Virus record (IMG/VR): IMGVR_UViG_3300045738_002140
Location: 32,001 to 96,000 of that record
Length of the DNA: 64,000 nt
Direction: 5' to 3' (one strand)
From: a virus
Each line of letters starts with the position of its first letter. Positions within the stretch are counted from its first letter, which is position 1. The notes under the pieces are model-generated. The model worked only from the letters and a program-made list of their open reading frames with translations. It was not told where the DNA came from and did no database searches. Position numbers and translations under genes: made by a program. This document shows positions 2,303 to 54,349 of this stretch, piece by piece.

Positions 2303-3214
2303 TTAGAATGTCAACTCATTTCTTAAATAATCTTTAAGTTTTTTTGTGGCTTTCCAGCCAAGTATTTTTTTCGCTTTTGTTACGTCTGCGAGCGTATGTC
2401 TTGCTTCGCCAACTCTTGTTTCAATATGTTCTTTTTCGCCACCAATCATTTCGGCTAAGCTGTTTACGCTATACGATACGCCTGAGCCTATGTTGAATAC
2501 CTCTCCAAAGGCTTTTTTATTTTCAGTCATGAGGGCAAGGATGTTTGCGTTTACTACGTCTTCGACGTGGGTGAAGTCTCTGGTTTGTTCCCCGTCTCCT
2601 ACTACCGTCATGGGCGTACCGCCTTTATGTTGCTCTAGGAATAAGCCAACAACTGGAGCGTAGAGCCCCTTGAGCGGCTGCCTGTCTCCATAGACATTAA
2701 AGTACCTAAACACTATCGTTTCTAAGCCGCAGGAATCATTAAAAAATTTACATAAATTTTCTGATGCCAGCTTGCTTATAGAATAGGGGTTTAAGCAGTC
2801 CGTGGGCATGTCTTCTATAAGTGGTGGATCATTTTTTAGTCCGTATACAGAAGACGTAGATGAAAATACAAACCTCTTGACCCCGTTGTCTTTGCATGCC
2901 TGTAGCAAATTAGCGGTTCCTACGTAGTTTACTATGCAAACCTTGACGGGGTCATCTATGCTTTTTTGTATTCTTGCTTCGGCAGCTAGGTGAATCACAG
3001 CGTCTGGCTTTTCTCTGAGAAAAAGATGCTTGATGCCGTCTTGATGTTCTATGCTATTAAATAAATTTTTTACGCCACGCTTTTTCCAATAAAACTTTTC
3101 GTTTGACTCTGCGGATTCATTATCTACGCAAACAACATCATGGCCATCTTCATAAAGTCGGTCAACAATATGGCTGCCTATGAACCCCGCACCACCTGTA
3201 ACTATTATTTTCAT
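2303..3214 (-). CDS. NAD-dependent epimerase/dehydratase (UDP-glucose 4-epimerase-like)
   Basis: TGGAGFIG, YSISK (YxxxK), RYFNVYG, RDFTHV motifs. Confidence 0.92.
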   Translation of the reverse strand: MKIIVTGGAGFIGSHIVDRLYEDGHDVVCVDNESAESNEKFYWKKRGVKNLFNSIEHQDGIKHLFLREKPDAVIHLAAEARIQKSIDDPVKVCIVNYVGTANLLQACKDNGVKRFVFSSTSSVYGLKNDPPLIEDMPTDCLNPYSISKLASENLCKFFNDSCGLETIVFRYFNVYGDRQPLKGLYAPVVGLFLEQHKGGTPMTVVGDGEQTRDFTHVEDVVNANILALMTENKKAFGEVFNIGSGVSYSVNSLAEMIGGEKEHIETRVGEARHTLADVTKAKKILGWKATKKLKDYLRNELTF

Positions 3215-5853
3215 TCTTTAAGCTCGGATAATTTAGTATATATTTTTAAATCTTGAATTGTCATTTTGTCAGCAAAGACCACTCCATCTTTTTTTGAGCC
3301 CGCCACATAAACAATATTGTTTTCTTTAGGAAGTGCCCCGTTGGAGTCTTTGCATTGGGATAAAAGTTTTCTGTTTTTTGTGTCAAAAATCATTACCTGC
3401 ATGTGGCCCGTCTCGTCAGAGACTGTGCATTTATAATAATCATTACCGTTTTTTGAGGTTCCTTTCCAATTTTTTTTGCCTACATACCCAACAAATTTTG
3501 TTCTAGCGCTATCTTGCATGTCTTCTAGGTCAGAAATATAATTTAAATTTAATATTTCTGATTGAAAAATAGAGCGAAGAGATTGTCCGTGAGTATATCC
3601 AAGTAATTTATTTTCATAATACCAATTAGCAAAATTTTCATATTTGCTATTTTGTCTATATATTTGAACGTATGGTATATATTTTCTCTTGATAGTATTA
3701 TATCTGGATTCTTTTATAAAGGGTTTTTCGTCTCCTTCCTGCGGAGTCTTTAATATGTTTATGATATTGATAAGGTCATTGTCTTTTTTAGACGCTAAGG
3801 CTAAGCACCTTTGCTTTTCCCTGTTCGTAAGAATTTTCCATAGCTGAGACTCTAGTACGACCTTGCTTCTAGACTGAGAGTAGCCCCCCTCTAGGGCTCC
3901 GGCCTGTATGAGCGCTGACAGTGTTCCTATGTTGAGGTTAGCTTCCTCTGCTGATTGAAAAATTTCAAATTTATTTGTATATTCCTCTTCTGGTCTGAAC
4001 TTTTTAATTTTGTCCATTGATTTCTCTGATATGCCCTTTATCGAAAGAAGCCCAAACCTTATGTCGTTTCCTTCAATAAAGAAGTCGTCTTTTGATTTAA
4101 CTATATGTGGCCTTAAGAGCCTCATACCAAAAGAATAAAGTTCTTTTTGTACATAAGAAATTTCCTCCGTTGAGTCTGGCTCGTGCTTGGTCATTCTAAG
4201 TAGCTCCAAGAAAAATTCTTTTGGGTAATTAAACTTAAGATAAACCGTAATCGCCGAAAGGGCAGCGTAGGCTATCGAGTGAGACTTGTTAAATGAATAA
4301 TTTGCAGAGTCCTCTAGCACCTTCCAGAGTATGTCTCCGATTTTTTCGTCTAGTTTGTTATCTTCTATCTTTTGTTTGATTTTTTTCTTCCACTTGCGGA
4401 CTTCGGACACCTTTTTCTTGCCCACGATTCGCCTTAGCATTTCCGCTTCGTCTAAGGTGAATCCAACTTTGTTGGCCATTTTCATTAGCTGTTCTTGGTA
4501 TAGCGCCACGCCACCTGTTGACGACAAAATGTCATCAAAGAAGGGGTGTATGGCTTCGTATTCTGCGCCGTTCGCCCAGTCAGCATATGTTTGTTCAAAC
4601 TGTAATGCGCCGGGTCTAGCTATGGCCAACACGGCGCTAAGTTGTTCTAGATTTTTGGGCTTAATGTTTTTGCACACTTTGTATGCCACATCTGCTTCTA
4701 TCTGAAAAAGCCCATGCTTGGACCTTAGGTCTTGAAGGTGTGAGTATATTTTATCATATGATTTTTTATTGTCTCCGTTTACATAGTCGAGAAGGTCTTC
4801 TTTTTTGACACCTATCCTTTTGCACACCTTAGCGACAACGGATACGCACCTTAGTCCTAGTACGTCTAGCTTTACATTGAACAGGGACATCCAATTCATG
4901 TCGTATGAAGAAACAGTGCTTATCTTATCTGAACATAGCTCGGTTGGGCAAGTGTCTTCTAGGTCGTCGTACGAAAGAGCAATGGCTGACGGGTGTACGC
5001 TTTTGTTTTTAATTAGATTTCTTAACTTAAGGGCTATTGAATAAACTTCGTCATGTTCCTCGCACCACTCTTTGAATTCTGGAACTTCTGAGTACGCCTG
5101 TTCTATGTCTGTAACGTTTCCATAGATTTTAGGGATCATGGAGGACACCCTGTTCATCTCAGACTCGTTAAGCGGAATACCTATGTCTCCCTTAGACGTA
5201 TGCCCTGCTATTTTGCCGCATTCTTTTATTAAAAGTTTTGAGCTAAGCGTGTTTAGGGTTAATATTTTTGAGGTTTTCCCTTTGAACTTTGTCCCTAGGT
5301 GGTCTAGGACCTTGTGTCTGTCGTAATAACAGATGTCTAAATCAATGTCAGCCATGAGTGATCCATCTAGATATACAACTCCGTCATGTACTTCTTTTTT
5401 GGCTCTAACTTTTGAAACAAACCTTTCAAAAAATAGTCCGTGCTTAATTGGGTCAATTCCCGTTACTTCAATTAAATAAAGTATAAGGCTTCCTGCGGCG
5501 CTTCCTCTTCCTAGCCCTTTTTCGATGTTGTTTTTATCACAAAAGCGACACACATACCACACTAAAAGAATATAATCAATGAAATCTAAATCTTTTAAGG
5601 TTTCGAGTTCGTGCTTTGCTCGATCCCTGTAAGCTTTGATTTCGCTTTTCTTTAGCTTGGGAGCAACTTTTTCTTTAAATGTTTTGGCCGAAAGGATGCG
5701 AAGGAAGTCGTAGTTGGTGCAATCTTCGCTTGCTCCTATAGCTCTTTTCTCTTCGAGGTCTATTTGGAATGAGGGCAACCTAACCCCGTGCATGGGAAAG
5801 GAATACCCTTTTAATTTTTTATCCAGTGTATTGTTCAAATTTCTATTTGCCAT
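3211..5853 (-). CDS. dnaE: DNA polymerase III alpha catalytic core lacking the N-terminal PHP domain
   Basis: GRGSAAGS, FERF, DIDLD, KLDVLGL, YQEQLM, YSFNKSH motifs; C-terminal OB fold. Confidence 0.95.
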   Translation of the reverse strand: MANRNLNNTLDKKLKGYSFPMHGVRLPSFQIDLEEKRAIGASEDCTNYDFLRILSAKTFKEKVAPKLKKSEIKAYRDRAKHELETLKDLDFIDYILLVWYVCRFCDKNNIEKGLGRGSAAGSLILYLIEVTGIDPIKHGLFFERFVSKVRAKKEVHDGVVYLDGSLMADIDLDICYYDRHKVLDHLGTKFKGKTSKILTLNTLSSKLLIKECGKIAGHTSKGDIGIPLNESEMNRVSSMIPKIYGNVTDIEQAYSEVPEFKEWCEEHDEVYSIALKLRNLIKNKSVHPSAIALSYDDLEDTCPTELCSDKISTVSSYDMNWMSLFNVKLDVLGLRCVSVVAKVCKRIGVKKEDLLDYVNGDNKKSYDKIYSHLQDLRSKHGLFQIEADVAYKVCKNIKPKNLEQLSAVLAIARPGALQFEQTYADWANGAEYEAIHPFFDDILSSTGGVALYQEQLMKMANKVGFTLDEAEMLRRIVGKKKVSEVRKWKKKIKQKIEDNKLDEKIGDILWKVLEDSANYSFNKSHSIAYAALSAITVYLKFNYPKEFFLELLRMTKHEPDSTEEISYVQKELYSFGMRLLRPHIVKSKDDFFIEGNDIRFGLLSIKGISEKSMDKIKKFRPEEEYTNKFEIFQSAEEANLNIGTLSALIQAGALEGGYSQSRSKVVLESQLWKILTNREKQRCLALASKKDNDLINIINILKTPQEGDEKPFIKESRYNTIKRKYIPYVQIYRQNSKYENFANWYYENKLLGYTHGQSLRSIFQSEILNLNYISDLEDMQDSARTKFVGYVGKKNWKGTSKNGNDYYKCTVSDETGHMQVMIFDTKNRKLLSQCKDSNGALPKENNIVYVAGSKKDGVVFADKMTIQDLKIYTKLSELKE

Positions 5854-11545: not shown

Positions 11546-11974
11546 TGGTGGAAGCGGCGGGAGTCGAACCCGCGTCTTTAAAGCCATCGGCTCAAATGTA
11601 CTACAAGCTTAGTCGGTGTTAATGCTCGCTTGGCGTGTCACCGACAAACGGCCTACGCGAGGTTGTAAGGGATGTATAAATTTTATACTGGGCTCCCTTA
11701 CGTGCTCCAGTTTTTTGCTCGCTATCGACGCCCTAGCTCCTTAACGAGCATCCAGAGTAGGACGGGGTAGGTTATTCTACCAGCAAGAGGGCTTCATCCT
11801 CTACAAAACCGAACTTGGCGAGAATCTCGTCAGCTTCGGCTAGTGAAGGGGCCATCTCCATGTCAACATTAGTGTTGGCATTTATGTTTTTTTGATAGAT
11901 GTTTTTAAGAGGCCAACCATCATCCTCTGCTTGCAATTTGGCGTAAGGTTCTAAATCGAATCCAGTACGCTCCC
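11546..11974 (-). ncRNA. ssrA: tmRNA (429 nt); tag reading frame 11879-11772
   Basis: 5' GGGAGCG pairs with 3' CGCTTCC-ACCA (G3:U70 alanine identity); GGATTCGA near the 5' end; T-arm GCGGGTTCGACTCCCGC; ATAAAT-GCC resume context followed by a 35-codon frame. Confidence 0.95.
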
Positions 11975-13685: not shown

Positions 13686-13759
13686 TGGAGCGAGCGAAGG
13701 GGATCGAACCCTCATCAAGAGCTTGGAAGGCTCCCGCACTACCGTTGTGCTACACTCGC
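13686..13759 (-). tRNA. tRNA-Gly(UCC)
   Basis: Cloverleaf GCGAGTG...CGCTCGC-T-CCA; anticodon loop CTTCCAA; GTTCGA T-loop. Confidence 0.96.
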
Positions 13760-14195: not shown

Positions 14196-15293
14196 TCACG
14201 CTACGTCTTTCACTATTGAATCTATAGTTGCGTTTGTTACTTGAGGCATGCAGATGAGGTGGGCGGTGTTCTTCTCTACTGCTAGTTTCCATTTTCTGCT
14301 AATTTTTTCATCTGGCCTAGGGAAAACTACTGTAATCGCGTGGTCATTTTTCCAAGCTTTCACCCCTGCTTCGTTAAACTTTGAAACAGCATACTCTGCG
14401 GTTCTTGTGCACCGCCTGACTATTCTTTTGAAGCCGTTGAAGCCGTGTTTTTTTATAGCATACCATAAGAGAATGGGGGTGAACCCATTTCTCGAGCCGC
14501 TGAGTGTACTGTCTAATGAGCCCACATACTCTACATCCCTAGAAACCCTGCCGACGTTACTTTTAAGTGCAAGAACTACGCCGCAGGGAATAGGCGAACC
14601 TATAAATTTGTGTCCACTTATGGATATGCTTTGAACCCCTGTTGTAAAATCAAATTTAGGAGAGCCCTCAATGAAGGGCAGCGTCATCCCTGCTAGGGCC
14701 GCATCAACATGTATATAATATTCCGGTATTGCTAATTGTTCTAGTACCTTTTTTATTTCTGTTATATCGTCGAACCCCTCTTTCATTGTCGTGCCTATGT
14801 TTGCAAAAATAACAGGAGGTGCAGAGCGCCAAGTGGAGAGCATGTTCCTGAAGTCGTCATAATCCATTTCTCCGTTACGTCTTGATTTAATCATGACGTT
14901 TTCCATGTTCAATACCCTTATGTTTTTGCTCACGCTATAGTGGGTGTCTTGGGAATAGTAGACTACCCCCTTGGGGTAAAGTTCCCTAGCTAAGTAAAGT
15001 CCATATAAATTGCCTTCCGTTCCACCATTGGTAACATATCCCCAGTAATTATCAGAAGGAGCGTTGTGAAGCTCTGCGAACCAATGCAGCACCTCTTGTT
15101 CGAATTCTCTGGAGTCTAGCCCATAGTAGCTTGAGGAAAATGGGTCTCCTACATTGTTAAGGGGGATAGACAAAAAATCAGATAGCTCAGAATAATCAAA
15201 AGAAGTATTTACAGGGTATCCTATAAACTTTTCTTTTTCTTCCTTCAAGCTTTCGTAAAACTTTTTAAGTTTTTTTATATCTGATTTGTTCAT
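14196..15293 (-). CDS. PLP-dependent group II decarboxylase (histidine/serine decarboxylase family)
   Basis: GYPVN, NNVGDPF, WGYVTNGGTEGN, HVDAAL, SGHKF (PLP lysine), GSRNG. Confidence 0.92.
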   Translation of the reverse strand: MNKSDIKKLKKFYESLKEEKEKFIGYPVNTSFDYSELSDFLSIPLNNVGDPFSSSYYGLDSREFEQEVLHWFAELHNAPSDNYWGYVTNGGTEGNLYGLYLARELYPKGVVYYSQDTHYSVSKNIRVLNMENVMIKSRRNGEMDYDDFRNMLSTWRSAPPVIFANIGTTMKEGFDDITEIKKVLEQLAIPEYYIHVDAALAGMTLPFIEGSPKFDFTTGVQSISISGHKFIGSPIPCGVVLALKSNVGRVSRDVEYVGSLDSTLSGSRNGFTPILLWYAIKKHGFNGFKRIVRRCTRTAEYAVSKFNEAGVKAWKNDHAITVVFPRPDEKISRKWKLAVEKNTAHLICMPQVTNATIDSIVKDVA

Positions 15294-15369
15294 GGCACTC
15301 TCGCTGGGACTCGAACCCAGAACCCTCTGTTTAGAAGACAGATGCTCTATCCAATTGAGCTACGAGAGC
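15293..15369 (-). tRNA. tRNA-Arg(UCU)
   Basis: Cloverleaf GCTCTCG...CGAGAGT-G-CCA; anticodon loop CTTCTAA. Confidence 0.96.
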
Positions 15370-52042: not shown

Positions 52043-52351
52043 ATGAGAAAGGAGCTATCTCAAGCTATCGACAGCCTTGTTGTCCAGTCAAAATTTGAAG
52101 GAATTGACCTTACAATAAAAGAAGGACTAGGTAACGCCGCAATAATAGCCAATATATCTGCCCAAAAAGTAGCGCTTTTAGGGATAGACGACAAAAACTC
52201 CATACACGCGCTAATGATTGACATAAACAGGTGGAAATGGGCAGAAGATGAAGGCTTCACCATGGAAGACGTAGTAGAGAAGCTTTCTGACGAAATATTC
52301 ACAGAAGTACGCCTCCACAGGCTAGTATATGAGCTCAATAAAAAACAATAG
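52043..52351 (+). CDS. Hypothetical protein
   Basis: ORF preceded by GTGTAAT. Confidence 0.7.
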   Translation: MRKELSQAIDSLVVQSKFEGIDLTIKEGLGNAAIIANISAQKVALLGIDDKNSIHALMIDINRWKWAEDEGFTMEDVVEKLSDEIFTEVRLHRLVYELNKKQ

Positions 52352-52379
52352 AAATTTCCCCTGAAAATTACTATTATTT

Positions 52380-52538
52380 ATGATGATCAGAAAAAAAGAA
52401 AAATACTACCTAGTGCTTTCCAAATCAAGGAACTACAGGATGGGGGTTTATCCCTATACGGAAGAAGGGAAGAAACAGGCAGAAGAGTTCGTAAAAAAGA
52501 ACAAGAAAACAGAAGAGCTCTATATAGTTGAGAAGTAA
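52380..52538 (+). CDS. Small hypothetical protein (52 aa)
   Basis: Manual translation MMIRKKEKYYLVLSK...; promoter-like sequence upstream. Confidence 0.6.
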   Translation: MMIRKKEKYYLVLSKSRNYRMGVYPYTEEGKKQAEEFVKKNKKTEELYIVEK

Positions 52539-52552
52539 TGTCACACCTTCAC

Positions 52553-52633
52553 TGTGTCATTTTGTCACACAAACTATAAAATATACCACCTTCTCTTGTC
52601 TTAATTCAAAAACAAGCTGGCACGCTACCTGCT
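52553..52633 (+). promoter_or_regulatory. Sigma54-type promoter with upstream palindrome
   Basis: TGGCACG-N4-CTGCT (52618-52633; GG-N10-GC); imperfect palindrome TGTGTCA-TTT-TGTCACA at 52553-52569. Confidence 0.7.
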
Positions 52634-52647
52634 GAATAGGATGTATT

Positions 52648-52971
52648 ATGAATACATCACTATATACCAATAGGTTATTTAACGACCTATTCGATACCCT
52701 TAGCTTGGATTCCAGAATCCACCCATCAGAGGAGGCTTACGAGTTTAATGTCAATTTGGCTGGCTTTAAAAAAGAAAACGTAAAAGTTAAAGCCGAAGAC
52801 GGACTACTCCACATCAGCGTAGAGCAGGGTGACAGGAGCTACTCCAGATATTTCACAGTCCCAGACAAGGCAGACCCTACAGCCACGGTAATAAAATACG
52901 AAGAAGGTTTATTGCACGTCAAATTTATTAAAAATGAAAAAGAAAAAGGGGTGAATATAGCAGTAAATTAA
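52648..52971 (+). CDS. Small heat shock protein (Hsp20/alpha-crystallin)
   Basis: LAGFKKENVKV...LHIS...YSRYFTVP...YEEGLLHV. Confidence 0.9.
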   Translation: MNTSLYTNRLFNDLFDTLSLDSRIHPSEEAYEFNVNLAGFKKENVKVKAEDGLLHISVEQGDRSYSRYFTVPDKADPTATVIKYEEGLLHVKFIKNEKEKGVNIAVN

Positions 52972-53007
52972 AGTTGAAAAACAAAAACCAACCCATATCA
53001 TTATAGT

Positions 53008-53149
53008 ACATACCAAAAGAACGCTTGTTTGGAAAGTGAGCGCACCTAGAGACTGGGTAAAAAGAGCGTTGTTTTTACCCGGCTCTCTTCTCCAAACAAA
53101 TCTAGGTACTACTAAGCCGGCCTTTGATCTGAGGGCCGGTTTTTTTTTT
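53008..53149 (+). ncRNA. Candidate small pseudoknotted RNA
   Basis: Promoter-like TTGAAA-16-TATCAT upstream; multiple helices; ends in a terminator. Confidence 0.55.
53117..53149 (+). terminator. Intrinsic terminator
   Basis: CCGGCCTTT/GAGGGCCGG stem plus T10. Confidence 0.88.
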
Positions 53150-53254
53150 GAAAAACTGAATTTTAAACCGAAGGGGCTTTTTTTGCTTGGGTGGACGATA
53201 TATATTGTTTTTTTTGATTTAGTGTGACTTTTAGTCTAAAATAATTAGACAAAA

Positions 53255-54349
53255 ATGGAAAGAGAAGACGAAATAAGAAAAGCCGTTAATTCCTTTGGCC
53301 AAGACGATACGACGTACAAAATACCTTCTAATAAAAAAGGTAAAATAAACCTTGGGACACAGGTGACCTTCTCCACGCACAGAAGCGGATGGGCTTACGC
53401 TATGAGAGCCCTCAAGCCCATCCACAACAAGAAAGGGGTCTATTTTCACGGTTTTCTTGAAGATGTTTTTTGTTGGAGAAAGAACTCGTACGAAGAGGGA
53501 GGACTTCTGCCATTCAAGCATAAATGGTGCGGTTTTTTACATAACCCCGCCTCTGAACCTAATCGCCATCCAAATTGGTTTTGGGATATGTACTCTGGCC
53601 GAGAAATAATTAAATCAGACGCTTTTAAATACAGTTTGGATAACTGCATAGGGCTATGGACGCTCTCAGAAAGTCATGCCGAGTTCTTGAGGAAAGAAAC
53701 AGGGAAAACCATATCTTCACTGATTCACCCTTCGGAGATACCAGAAGTGCAGTTTGACTTCAACAAATTTAAAGAAAATAAATCAAAAAGAATAATAAAC
53801 ATTGGATATTGGCTTAGAAAAATAAACTCTATTGACATTTTGCCGGTTCATGTAGATAAGTACATCAAGACAAGGGTATTACCATTCCACAAAGATAGTG
53901 TAGCTTATGGACATTTTCTTACGTTAAAAAAACTTGAGTTCAAACATGAGCATTGGTTACGCTCAGCGTGGGGAAAGTACAATAACGAATCATACAACAG
54001 AGTAGACGAACTGAACAGAATCCCTGACGAAGATTACGACAATCTTTTTGTTGACAATATAGCTTTCTTAGACATGTACGACTCTAGCGCAAACAATGCG
54101 GTGATAGAGTGCATAGCTCGTTGTACGCCGCTATTAGTTAACCGGATTCCTTCCATAGTGGAGTATCTTGGGGTAAATTATCCGTTTTATTTTGAATCTT
54201 TAGAAGAGGCCGCAGAAAAGGCAATGGACGAGAACTTAATAAAAGTTACAAGCGAGCACATGAGGCACAACGTAAAAACGAGAAAGAAGCTCACACCAGA
54301 AGCCTTTCTCAAAGATTTTGTAAATAGCGAGGTATACAAAAAAATATGA
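53255..54349 (+). CDS. Putative GT-B-fold glycosyltransferase-like protein
   Basis: IGYWLRK; DSSANNAVIECIARCTPLLVN..P...EYLG. Confidence 0.55.
   Translation: MEREDEIRKAVNSFGQDDTTYKIPSNKKGKINLGTQVTFSTHRSGWAYAMRALKPIHNKKGVYFHGFLEDVFCWRKNSYEEGGLLPFKHKWCGFLHNPASEPNRHPNWFWDMYSGREIIKSDAFKYSLDNCIGLWTLSESHAEFLRKETGKTISSLIHPSEIPEVQFDFNKFKENKSKRIINIGYWLRKINSIDILPVHVDKYIKTRVLPFHKDSVAYGHFLTLKKLEFKHEHWLRSAWGKYNNESYNRVDELNRIPDEDYDNLFVDNIAFLDMYDSSANNAVIECIARCTPLLVNRIPSIVEYLGVNYPFYFESLEEAAEKAMDENLIKVTSEHMRHNVKTRKKLTPEAFLKDFVNSEVYKKI

Follow-up and report, generated by a model that had tools for sequence, protein, structure and literature searches.

A conserved, structured RNA element with two predicted pseudoknots downstream of hsp20 in an uncultured marine phage lineage, most likely a small RNA of a new family

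To our knowledge, phage small RNAs with a known structure-based role are few, and nearly all of the well-supported structured RNA classes that we know of come from large alignments. Several phage and bacterial RNAs may be compared with the element described here. The phi29-family pRNA is a phage RNA of ~120 nt, the structure of which is kept across relatives at little sequence identity, and its bulge loop and hairpin loop engage in covarying intermolecular pairings that lead to dimers and rings (PMC6239171). ROOL, GOLLD, and OLE are bacterial or phage RNAs of unknown function with covarying intermolecular contacts (10.1101/2024.12.08.627333). The put RNAs act upon downstream terminators (PMC9378689). 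The element studied here resembles pRNA in being phage-encoded, in having a fold that is kept despite low identity, and in its covarying long-range pairings. However, its loop and bulge have its own 5′ and 3′ tails as partners, an arrangement for which pairing in cis and in trans is indistinguishable from sequence, and it has no sequence or Rfam match to pRNA. Unlike phi29, the phage has a large genome (~170 kb estimated) and a DnaE-type polymerase; since its contig measures 114 kb at 66% completeness and codes for this DnaE-like polymerase, a phi29-like phage is argued against. ROOL, GOLLD, and OLE provide a precedent for a sterically awkward “pseudoknot” that is in fact a contact between copies, but they are hundreds of nucleotides long, the element only ~90 nt plus a terminator, and there is no homology.

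Three further comparisons concern smaller RNAs. ToxI-type antitoxins, which are linked with phage-host conflict, are likewise small pseudoknotted RNAs, and a mimic of such a type III antitoxin was among the readings offered by the first-pass annotation of this DNA. However, ToxI-type RNAs come as tandem repeats beside an endoribonuclease toxin that processes them. The element is single-copy in each genome, no tandem repeats were found in 52800-53400, and no neighbor is toxin-like (the genes on either side code for Hsp20, a glycosyltransferase-like protein, and a sulfotransferase; PADLOC gave no significant match). It is, therefore, not a type III antitoxin. With HK022 put and EAR it shares the layout of a promoter-proximal structured RNA followed by terminators and a long operon, which for EAR is a polysaccharide operon. 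Yet put, which binds RNA polymerase, measures ~70 nt and folds two stem-loops into a V with an RNA triplex, whereas the element consists of a single long, interrupted hairpin plus two pairings with its tails, and 3′ of its terminator there is a promoter-like site that is separate and conserved. Finally, it is similar to the ZTP, fluoride, and preQ1 riboswitches in its compact fold and in the 3′ strand, which completes a pseudoknot immediately 5′ of an intrinsic terminator. In those riboswitches this strand shares sequence with the terminator or antiterminator, whereas that of the element ends 6 nt before the stem, and the element has neither a conserved competing helix nor a match to their Rfam models or any other.

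The window, i.e., the whole stretch of 64,000 nt analyzed here, covers bases 32001-96000 of a 114,176-base IMG/VR record with a completeness estimate of 66%; the whole phage genome is estimated at about 170 kb. It codes for a DnaE-like polymerase, a DnaB-like helicase, a ribonucleotide reductase, and a UvsX-like recombinase, and because the polymerase is at most 27-31% identical to that of any phage record, the phage represents a lineage without a cultured relative. Several studies have sampled DNA near-identical to the stretch with the RNA gene, from seawater and in marine metagenomes (21 runs, none of them an RNA run). The element occupies most of the 283-nt gap between hsp20 and a co-directional operon that codes for a 364-aa protein, a sulfotransferase, a cupin, and a phosphomannomutase. 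The protein-coding genes referred to are:

3211-5853, minus strand: DnaE-like Pol III alpha, the replicative polymerase
52648-52971: Hsp20 gene, 5′ of the RNA element (Pfam HSP20, E 1e-12)
53255-54349: 364-aa protein, first gene of the downstream operon, without a Pfam domain

The 364-aa protein has >200 homologs. N-terminal TPR repeats are present in many of those from cyanobacteria, and a few homologs bear the annotation glycosyltransferase; the protein looks like a member of an uncharacterised transferase family common to marine phages and cyanobacteria. There is no terminator between hsp20 and the RNA element in the window and, consequently, the hsp20 mRNA must end at 53142. The parts of the RNA gene, in window positions, are:

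52974-53001, + strand: sigma70-like promoter TTGAAA-16-TATCAT, 10/12 consensus matches, best site in the region
53020-53025, + strand: PK2 5′ strand AACGC(T), in the 5′ tail directly before P1, 5-6 pairs with the loop
53025-53033, + strand: P1 5′ strand TTGTTTGGA, partner TCCAAACAA at 53091-53099, 9/9 pairs
53034-53041, + strand: P2 5′ strand AAGTGAGC (RNA AAGUGAGC), partner GCTCTCTT at 53082-53089, 7/8 pairs, the mismatch being U53037-U53086
53044-53050, + strand: PK1 5′ strand ACCTAGA (ACCUAGA), within the one-sided internal loop from P2 to P3
53053-53063 and 53072-53082, + strand: P3, CTGGGTAAAAA and TTTTTACCCGG, 11/11 pairs, one of them G-U
53064-53071, + strand: apical loop of P3, 8 nt (2 unpaired, 5 paired in PK2, 1 unpaired)
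53065-53070, + strand: PK2 3′ strand (A)GCGTT, inside the P3 hairpin loop
53020-53024 with 53066-53070, + strand: PK2 core, 5 pairs
53082-53089, + strand: P2 3′ strand GCTCTCTT (RNA GCUCUCUU), invariant
53091-53099, + strand: P1 3′ strand, as RNA UCCAAACAA
53101-53107, + strand: PK1 3′ strand TCTAGGT (UCUAGGU), one nt 3′ of P1, 7/7 pairs
53114-53149 (stem to 53142), + strand: intrinsic terminator, a 12-13-bp stem and then a 10-U run

The strand order is PK2-P1-P2-PK1-P3-PK2′-P3′-P2′-P1′-PK1′, and an A/U-rich linker of 6 nt separates the PK1 3′ strand from the terminator stem. Transcription would start near 53008-53010. The first-pass annotation had called the promoter, the outer helix (P1), its extension AAGTGAG/CTCTCTT (which is P2 with its U-U mismatch), the inner hairpin (P3), the pseudoknot ACCTAGA/TCTAGGT (PK1), a possible second one AACGCT/AGCGTT (PK2), and a strong terminator. 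All of these were confirmed at the coordinates given there, by direct reading and by a script check, and the complementarity of both pseudoknots is kept in the second genome discussed below. The + strand of 53005-53150 folds at -53.4 kcal/mol, compared to -35.0 ± 3.6 kcal/mol for 200 dinucleotide shuffles (z -5.1), none of which was as stable as the native sequence. The fold is thus above chance, and the best evidence for it is the conservation of the pairings in the second genome. The minus strand folds less well; transcription from that strand was rejected in view of the weaker fold, the lack of a terminator there, and the G-U pairs, which would turn into A-C.

This second genome was reached by aligning the homologs of the 364-aa protein and searching with the alignment, which yielded 51 viral loci of which only one, L002, is closely related. 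L002 is a 104-kb contig with 73% identity in the 364-aa protein and with the gene order 100-aa gene, 50-aa gene, hsp20, 66-aa gene, promoter, structured region, terminator, and the same operon. BLAST gives no alignment of the RNA core between the window and L002; a covariance model built from the window sequence and the nested helices alone detects the copy in L002 with 44.6 bits (E 3e-8) and has no other match in 170 loci. The minimum-energy fold of L002 is the same hairpin (z -3.5), and the short linkers and the layout of the 8-nt loop (2 unpaired, 5 paired, 1 unpaired) are kept. The L002 promoter TTGGAG-18-TATAAT lies at 2716-2745 (the scanner reads it as TGGAGA-17-TATAAT) at the same distance from the RNA as in the window, with a leader of ~11 nt in both, and a terminator with a U-run follows at 2859-2884. 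Between hsp20 and the RNA, L002 carries a gene for a 66-aa membrane protein with a hydrophobic helix (2468-2709), which is absent from the genome of the window and has its own promoter, TTGACA-17-TAATAT with TG, a near-consensus extended -10.

The two RNA cores are ~50% identical (49 of 100 columns in a MAFFT alignment of the two sequences), and PK1, PK2, P2, and P3 occupy identical columns. The comparison of P1 requires a shift by one column, which the model-based alignment gives; there 9/9 pairs are kept, the L002 strands being UUAUGAGAC and GUUUUCAUAA. Every pair of the five pairings is kept in both genomes, and 14 pairs have changed on both sides, although pair counts from a two-row alignment carry little statistical weight, the basis being two diverged sequences and one variant:

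P1: 9 pairs, 5 changed on both sides, 1 on one side
P2: 6 pairs, none changed on both sides, none on one side (invariant)
P3: 11 pairs, 4 changed on both sides, 4 on one side
PK1: 7 pairs, 3 changed on both sides, 1 on one side
PK2: 5 pairs, 2 changed on both sides, 1 on one side

For PK2, PK1, P3, and P2, standard pairs fill 57/57 cells, whereas sliding the 3′ partners by 1-3 columns as a control lowers pairing to 32-55% (31-63% when P1 is included). In L002, PK2 is formed by GGCCC with the loop GGGUC, and PK1 by GUUCAGA and UCUGAGC in the same columns as in the window. P2 (AAGUGAGC/GCUCUCUU) is identical in both, including the U-U mismatch and the G that follows. With shuffles of the L002 RNA, the chance of complementarity at the homologous places is 0.0013 for PK1 and 0.009 for PK2. 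Since both pseudoknots had been proposed from the window alone, L002 provides an independent test, which they passed, and the check for covariation among homologs that had been proposed along with them thus revealed compensatory changes in P1, P3, PK1, and PK2. L002 has three G-U pairs in P3 and one in PK1, which work on the + strand only and, therefore, identify the strand. A conserved, structured + strand RNA element is, therefore, real: its helices, their compensatory conservation, its strand, and its conserved promoter and terminator architecture are apparent from the two genomes compared.

In run X10, a 16.5-kb contig represents a closer population variant, with 90-95% similarity over 52640-53300. 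The 40 substitutions listed for it all fall in 52671-52973, i.e., in hsp20 (12%, 334 nt), and since this listing is sorted by place, 10 further substitutions are most likely located in 52974-53300 (about 3%, 327 nt). Subtraction from the run totals indicates that 9 of these 10 are transitions. The sole indel is a loss of 2 nt at 53048, in the repeat AGAGA, which spares the ACCUAGA of PK1 and makes the linker to P3 shorter, by two positions that are absent from L002 as well. This deletion puts a 63-aa ORF out of frame, and a search for a counterpart of this ORF in L002 gave none. We have, therefore, rejected it as a gene, which also rules out the concern, raised in the first-pass annotation, that the ORF rather than the RNA might be the conserved element.

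Searches for further copies were made at the level of the RNA and of its neighbors. The element has no blastn match in 50,697 phage records, the exact inner-hairpin pattern does not occur in IMG/VR, and single-protein scans of IMG/VR with Hsp20 and the 364-aa protein gave none. An Hsp20 alignment led to 600 pattern matches in metagenome contigs with no relative among them, and in IMG/VR the alignment of the Hsp20 clade returned the contig of L002 only; an 88% identical Hsp20, P0002, is located on a 23.9-kb contig. The P2 pattern occurs at 38 loci in IMG/VR and in at least 120 stretches of metagenome contigs (80 loci listed), and a stricter version at 13 loci in 185,579 species genomes. Covariance models run on the IMG/VR, listed metagenome, and species-genome loci found chance hairpins only. 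The two-sequence model R2, applied to 41 whole viral records, detected one copy each in the genomes of the window and of L002 and none in the 39 records with more distant homologs of the 364-aa protein, and a scan with a 15-mer from downstream of the RNA (see below) gave 42 loci and no additional RNA copy. The RNA family is, therefore, narrow, since R2 and the loci listed from the pattern scans contained no copies beyond those of the window and L002.

A comparison with Rfam, also suggested at the outset, gave no family on the element at the gathering thresholds of Rfam 15; for the whole window it returned a tmRNA and two tRNAs, located elsewhere. With E up to 10 the best match is PrrF (26 bits vs. 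a threshold of 90), an artifact carried by the promoter and terminator, and the L002 copy produces a different list of weak, terminator-driven matches. No ribozyme family (hammerhead, twister, pistol, hatchet, HDV-like) matches either copy at E up to 10, and the strand order of the element is unlike those of these ribozymes; a ribozyme, one of the readings in the first-pass annotation, is neither favored nor discounted by these comparisons. Judged by these searches, the element fits no known RNA family.

The region between the terminator and the downstream operon is conserved in its own way, and one of its motifs recurs elsewhere in both genomes:

53189-53203, + strand: 15-mer GGGTGGACGATATAT, outside the RNA, identical in L002
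53214-53242, + strand: promoter-like TTGATT-17-TAAAAT, outside the RNA, identical in L002
48943-48957: second copy of the 15-mer, before a sulfotransferase-like gene without such an RNA
13549 and 15820 of the L002 contig (G001), minus strand: copies of the 15-mer in L002

The 15-mer GGGTGGACGATATAT is present in exactly two copies in each genome, every one of which sits 45-65 nt upstream of the start of a sulfotransferase or glycosyltransferase operon; it looks like a shared operator or a phage-specific promoter element for glycan-modification genes. The downstream operon thus seems to possess its own control region.

Our data are on balance probably best explained by a new, narrowly distributed phage small RNA that has its own promoter and terminator and acts via its fold. 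The element is most likely a phage small RNA that is transcribed on its own and represents a new family, and the independent sRNA with two pseudoknot pairings that was proposed initially is supported by the recurrence in L002 of promoter, leader length, all five pairings, and terminator. The gene would be a non-coding one of about 135-140 nt on the + strand of a marine phage, transcribed from its own sigma70-type promoter up to its own intrinsic terminator; transcripts reading through from hsp20 would carry the RNA too. The RNA is predicted to fold as a 28-bp interrupted hairpin (P1-P2-P3), of which the apical loop may pair with the 5′ tail (PK2) and the one-sided internal loop with the 3′ tail (PK1). 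Selection would appear to target the pairings, along with the invariant P2 helix and the U-U mismatch in it, and not a single-stranded seed, and for this reason we infer an action through the three-dimensional fold, which would bind a protein, a ligand, or another copy of the RNA. Its transcription and its independence from the downstream operon are likewise probable rather than observed. We think that the RNA is neither an antisense regulator nor the leader of the next operon.

In phages that infect proteobacteria-like hosts, a unit of promoter and terminator most often encodes a base-pairing sRNA, which counts against an action through the fold. In such a trans-acting sRNA (Hfq-type or similar), the hairpin would be a scaffold and the internal complementarity would only mask a seed, i.e., the strands of PK1 or PK2 or the CU-rich GCUCUCUU, directed against host or phage mRNAs. 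The sigma70-like promoter, the length of ~140 nt, the A/U-rich linker, and the terminator with its long U tail agree with this as matches to the consensus, and the invariant CUCUCUU may resemble an anti-Shine-Dalgarno motif. However, this sole invariant block is part of a helix in both genomes, the candidate single strands are not the same in the two phages and co-vary with their internal partners, and neither phage genome has complementarity of ≥13 nt to the RNA. We, therefore, regard a base-pairing sRNA as rather unlikely. A still smaller chance is given to a cis-acting leader of the sugar/sulfate modification operon (53255 onward), either a riboswitch or attenuator controlling the terminator at 53114-53149, or an RNA like put or EAR, under the influence of which RNA polymerase would pass terminators. 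In both genomes the element precedes this operon and is separated from it by a terminator, its compact pseudoknotted fold is aptamer-like, its P1 and PK1 conformers are within 2-7 kcal/mol of each other, and EAR is linked to exopolysaccharide operons. On the other hand, the strongest pairings of the terminator strands with the upstream RNA use different partners in the window and in L002, so that no conserved antiterminator pairing was seen between the two, and the PK1 3′ strand does not overlap the terminator. Moreover, the layout of put differs, no Rfam leader or riboswitch model matches, and the conserved promoter-like site and 15-mer stand between terminator and operon in both genomes, the 15-mer also preceding a second operon without such an RNA. 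The conserved control region that the operon seems to have of its own thus weakens the attenuator for the 53255 operon that the first-pass annotation had listed, and we consider a leader improbable.

It is very improbable that the element does no more than form the 3′ end of the hsp20 mRNA, as a stabilizing hairpin with a terminator, with the tail-to-loop complementarities being a coincidence or protein-bound inverted repeats at the DNA level. The absence of a terminator between hsp20 and the element would fit this, as would the support of the covariation by two sequences only. However, in L002 a separate promoter-bearing gene stands in between and yet the element keeps its own promoter, PK1 and PK2 have persisted despite 5 double-sided changes, all of them in columns that are exactly homologous, and a plain stabilizer hairpin needs no invariant mismatched P2.

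For a small RNA acting via its fold, the question arises how the five pairings fit together. PK2 would be easy to form in cis: P3 and the loop helix together (11+5 bp) have about the length of P1+P2 (17 bp), and because of these similar lengths the 5′ tail can reach the apical loop if the stacks lie side by side. PK1 is a different matter, since its 3′ strand begins 1-2 nt after the base of P1 and its 5′ strand is at the opposite end of the 17-bp P1-P2 stack. By simple helix geometry, a back-of-envelope estimate, PK1 would be hard to form in cis with P1-P2 fully stacked; a linker of 1-2 nt would have to bridge the entire stack, between the base of P1 and the top of P2, and, consequently, the five pairings may not coexist. 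The RNA could be sharply bent, P1 and PK1 could alternate, or PK1 could form between copies. Nearest-neighbor energies are -27.7 (window) and -19.7 kcal/mol (L002) for P1+P2+P3, and -20.5 (window) and -17.4 kcal/mol (L002) for PK1+P3. Cofolding of dimers gave the trivial extended duplex only, as any long hairpin can form. A bolder proposal, which we hold to be doubtful, is that the element is the founding member of a new compact phage RNA class in which the five pairings are not all formed simultaneously in one molecule. In a two-state version, forms with P1 closed and with PK1 closed would be a few kcal/mol apart; in an assembly version, the tails of one copy would dock on the loop and bulge of another, yielding dimers or head-to-tail assemblies. 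The RNA might then mirror, in miniature, the self-assembly of pRNA or of ROOL-type RNAs, or it might represent a new fold of an aptamer or ribozyme.

Two pseudoknots predicted from one sequence withstood a test on an independent, ~50%-diverged copy, and the element, with ~100 nt and easily transcribed, is a concrete and cheap candidate for probing and for oligomer, ligand, and cleavage work. The narrow distribution, over two contigs and one variant, limits the reach of these results. If the long-range pairings are intermolecular or switchable, this would be a very small natural example of RNA self-assembly or bistability; if not, it would still be a new phage sRNA family beside a sigma54-driven chaperone gene and a glycan-modification operon, in a marine phage lineage that is uncultured.

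Several other features of these phages were observed. Before hsp20, both carry a sigma54-type -24/-12 motif, which hints at a host with RpoN; such a host we take to rule out cyanobacteria for this phage. Two small genes of 100-102 aa and 50-52 aa, to which no family could be assigned, precede hsp20 in the same order in both phages. The phage of the window also carries tRNA-Gly(UCC), tRNA-Arg(UCU), and a full-length tmRNA gene, which scores 134 bits in Rfam against a threshold of 47 and has no ARAGORN call. These features are located as follows:

Window 52618-52633: sigma54-type motif TGGCAC-N5-CTGC
L002 2112-2127: sigma54-type motif TGGCAC-N5-TTGC
Window 52043-52538 and L002 1543-2042: two small genes 5′ of hsp20
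Window 11546-11974, 13686-13759, and 15293-15369, all minus strand: tmRNA and two tRNA genes
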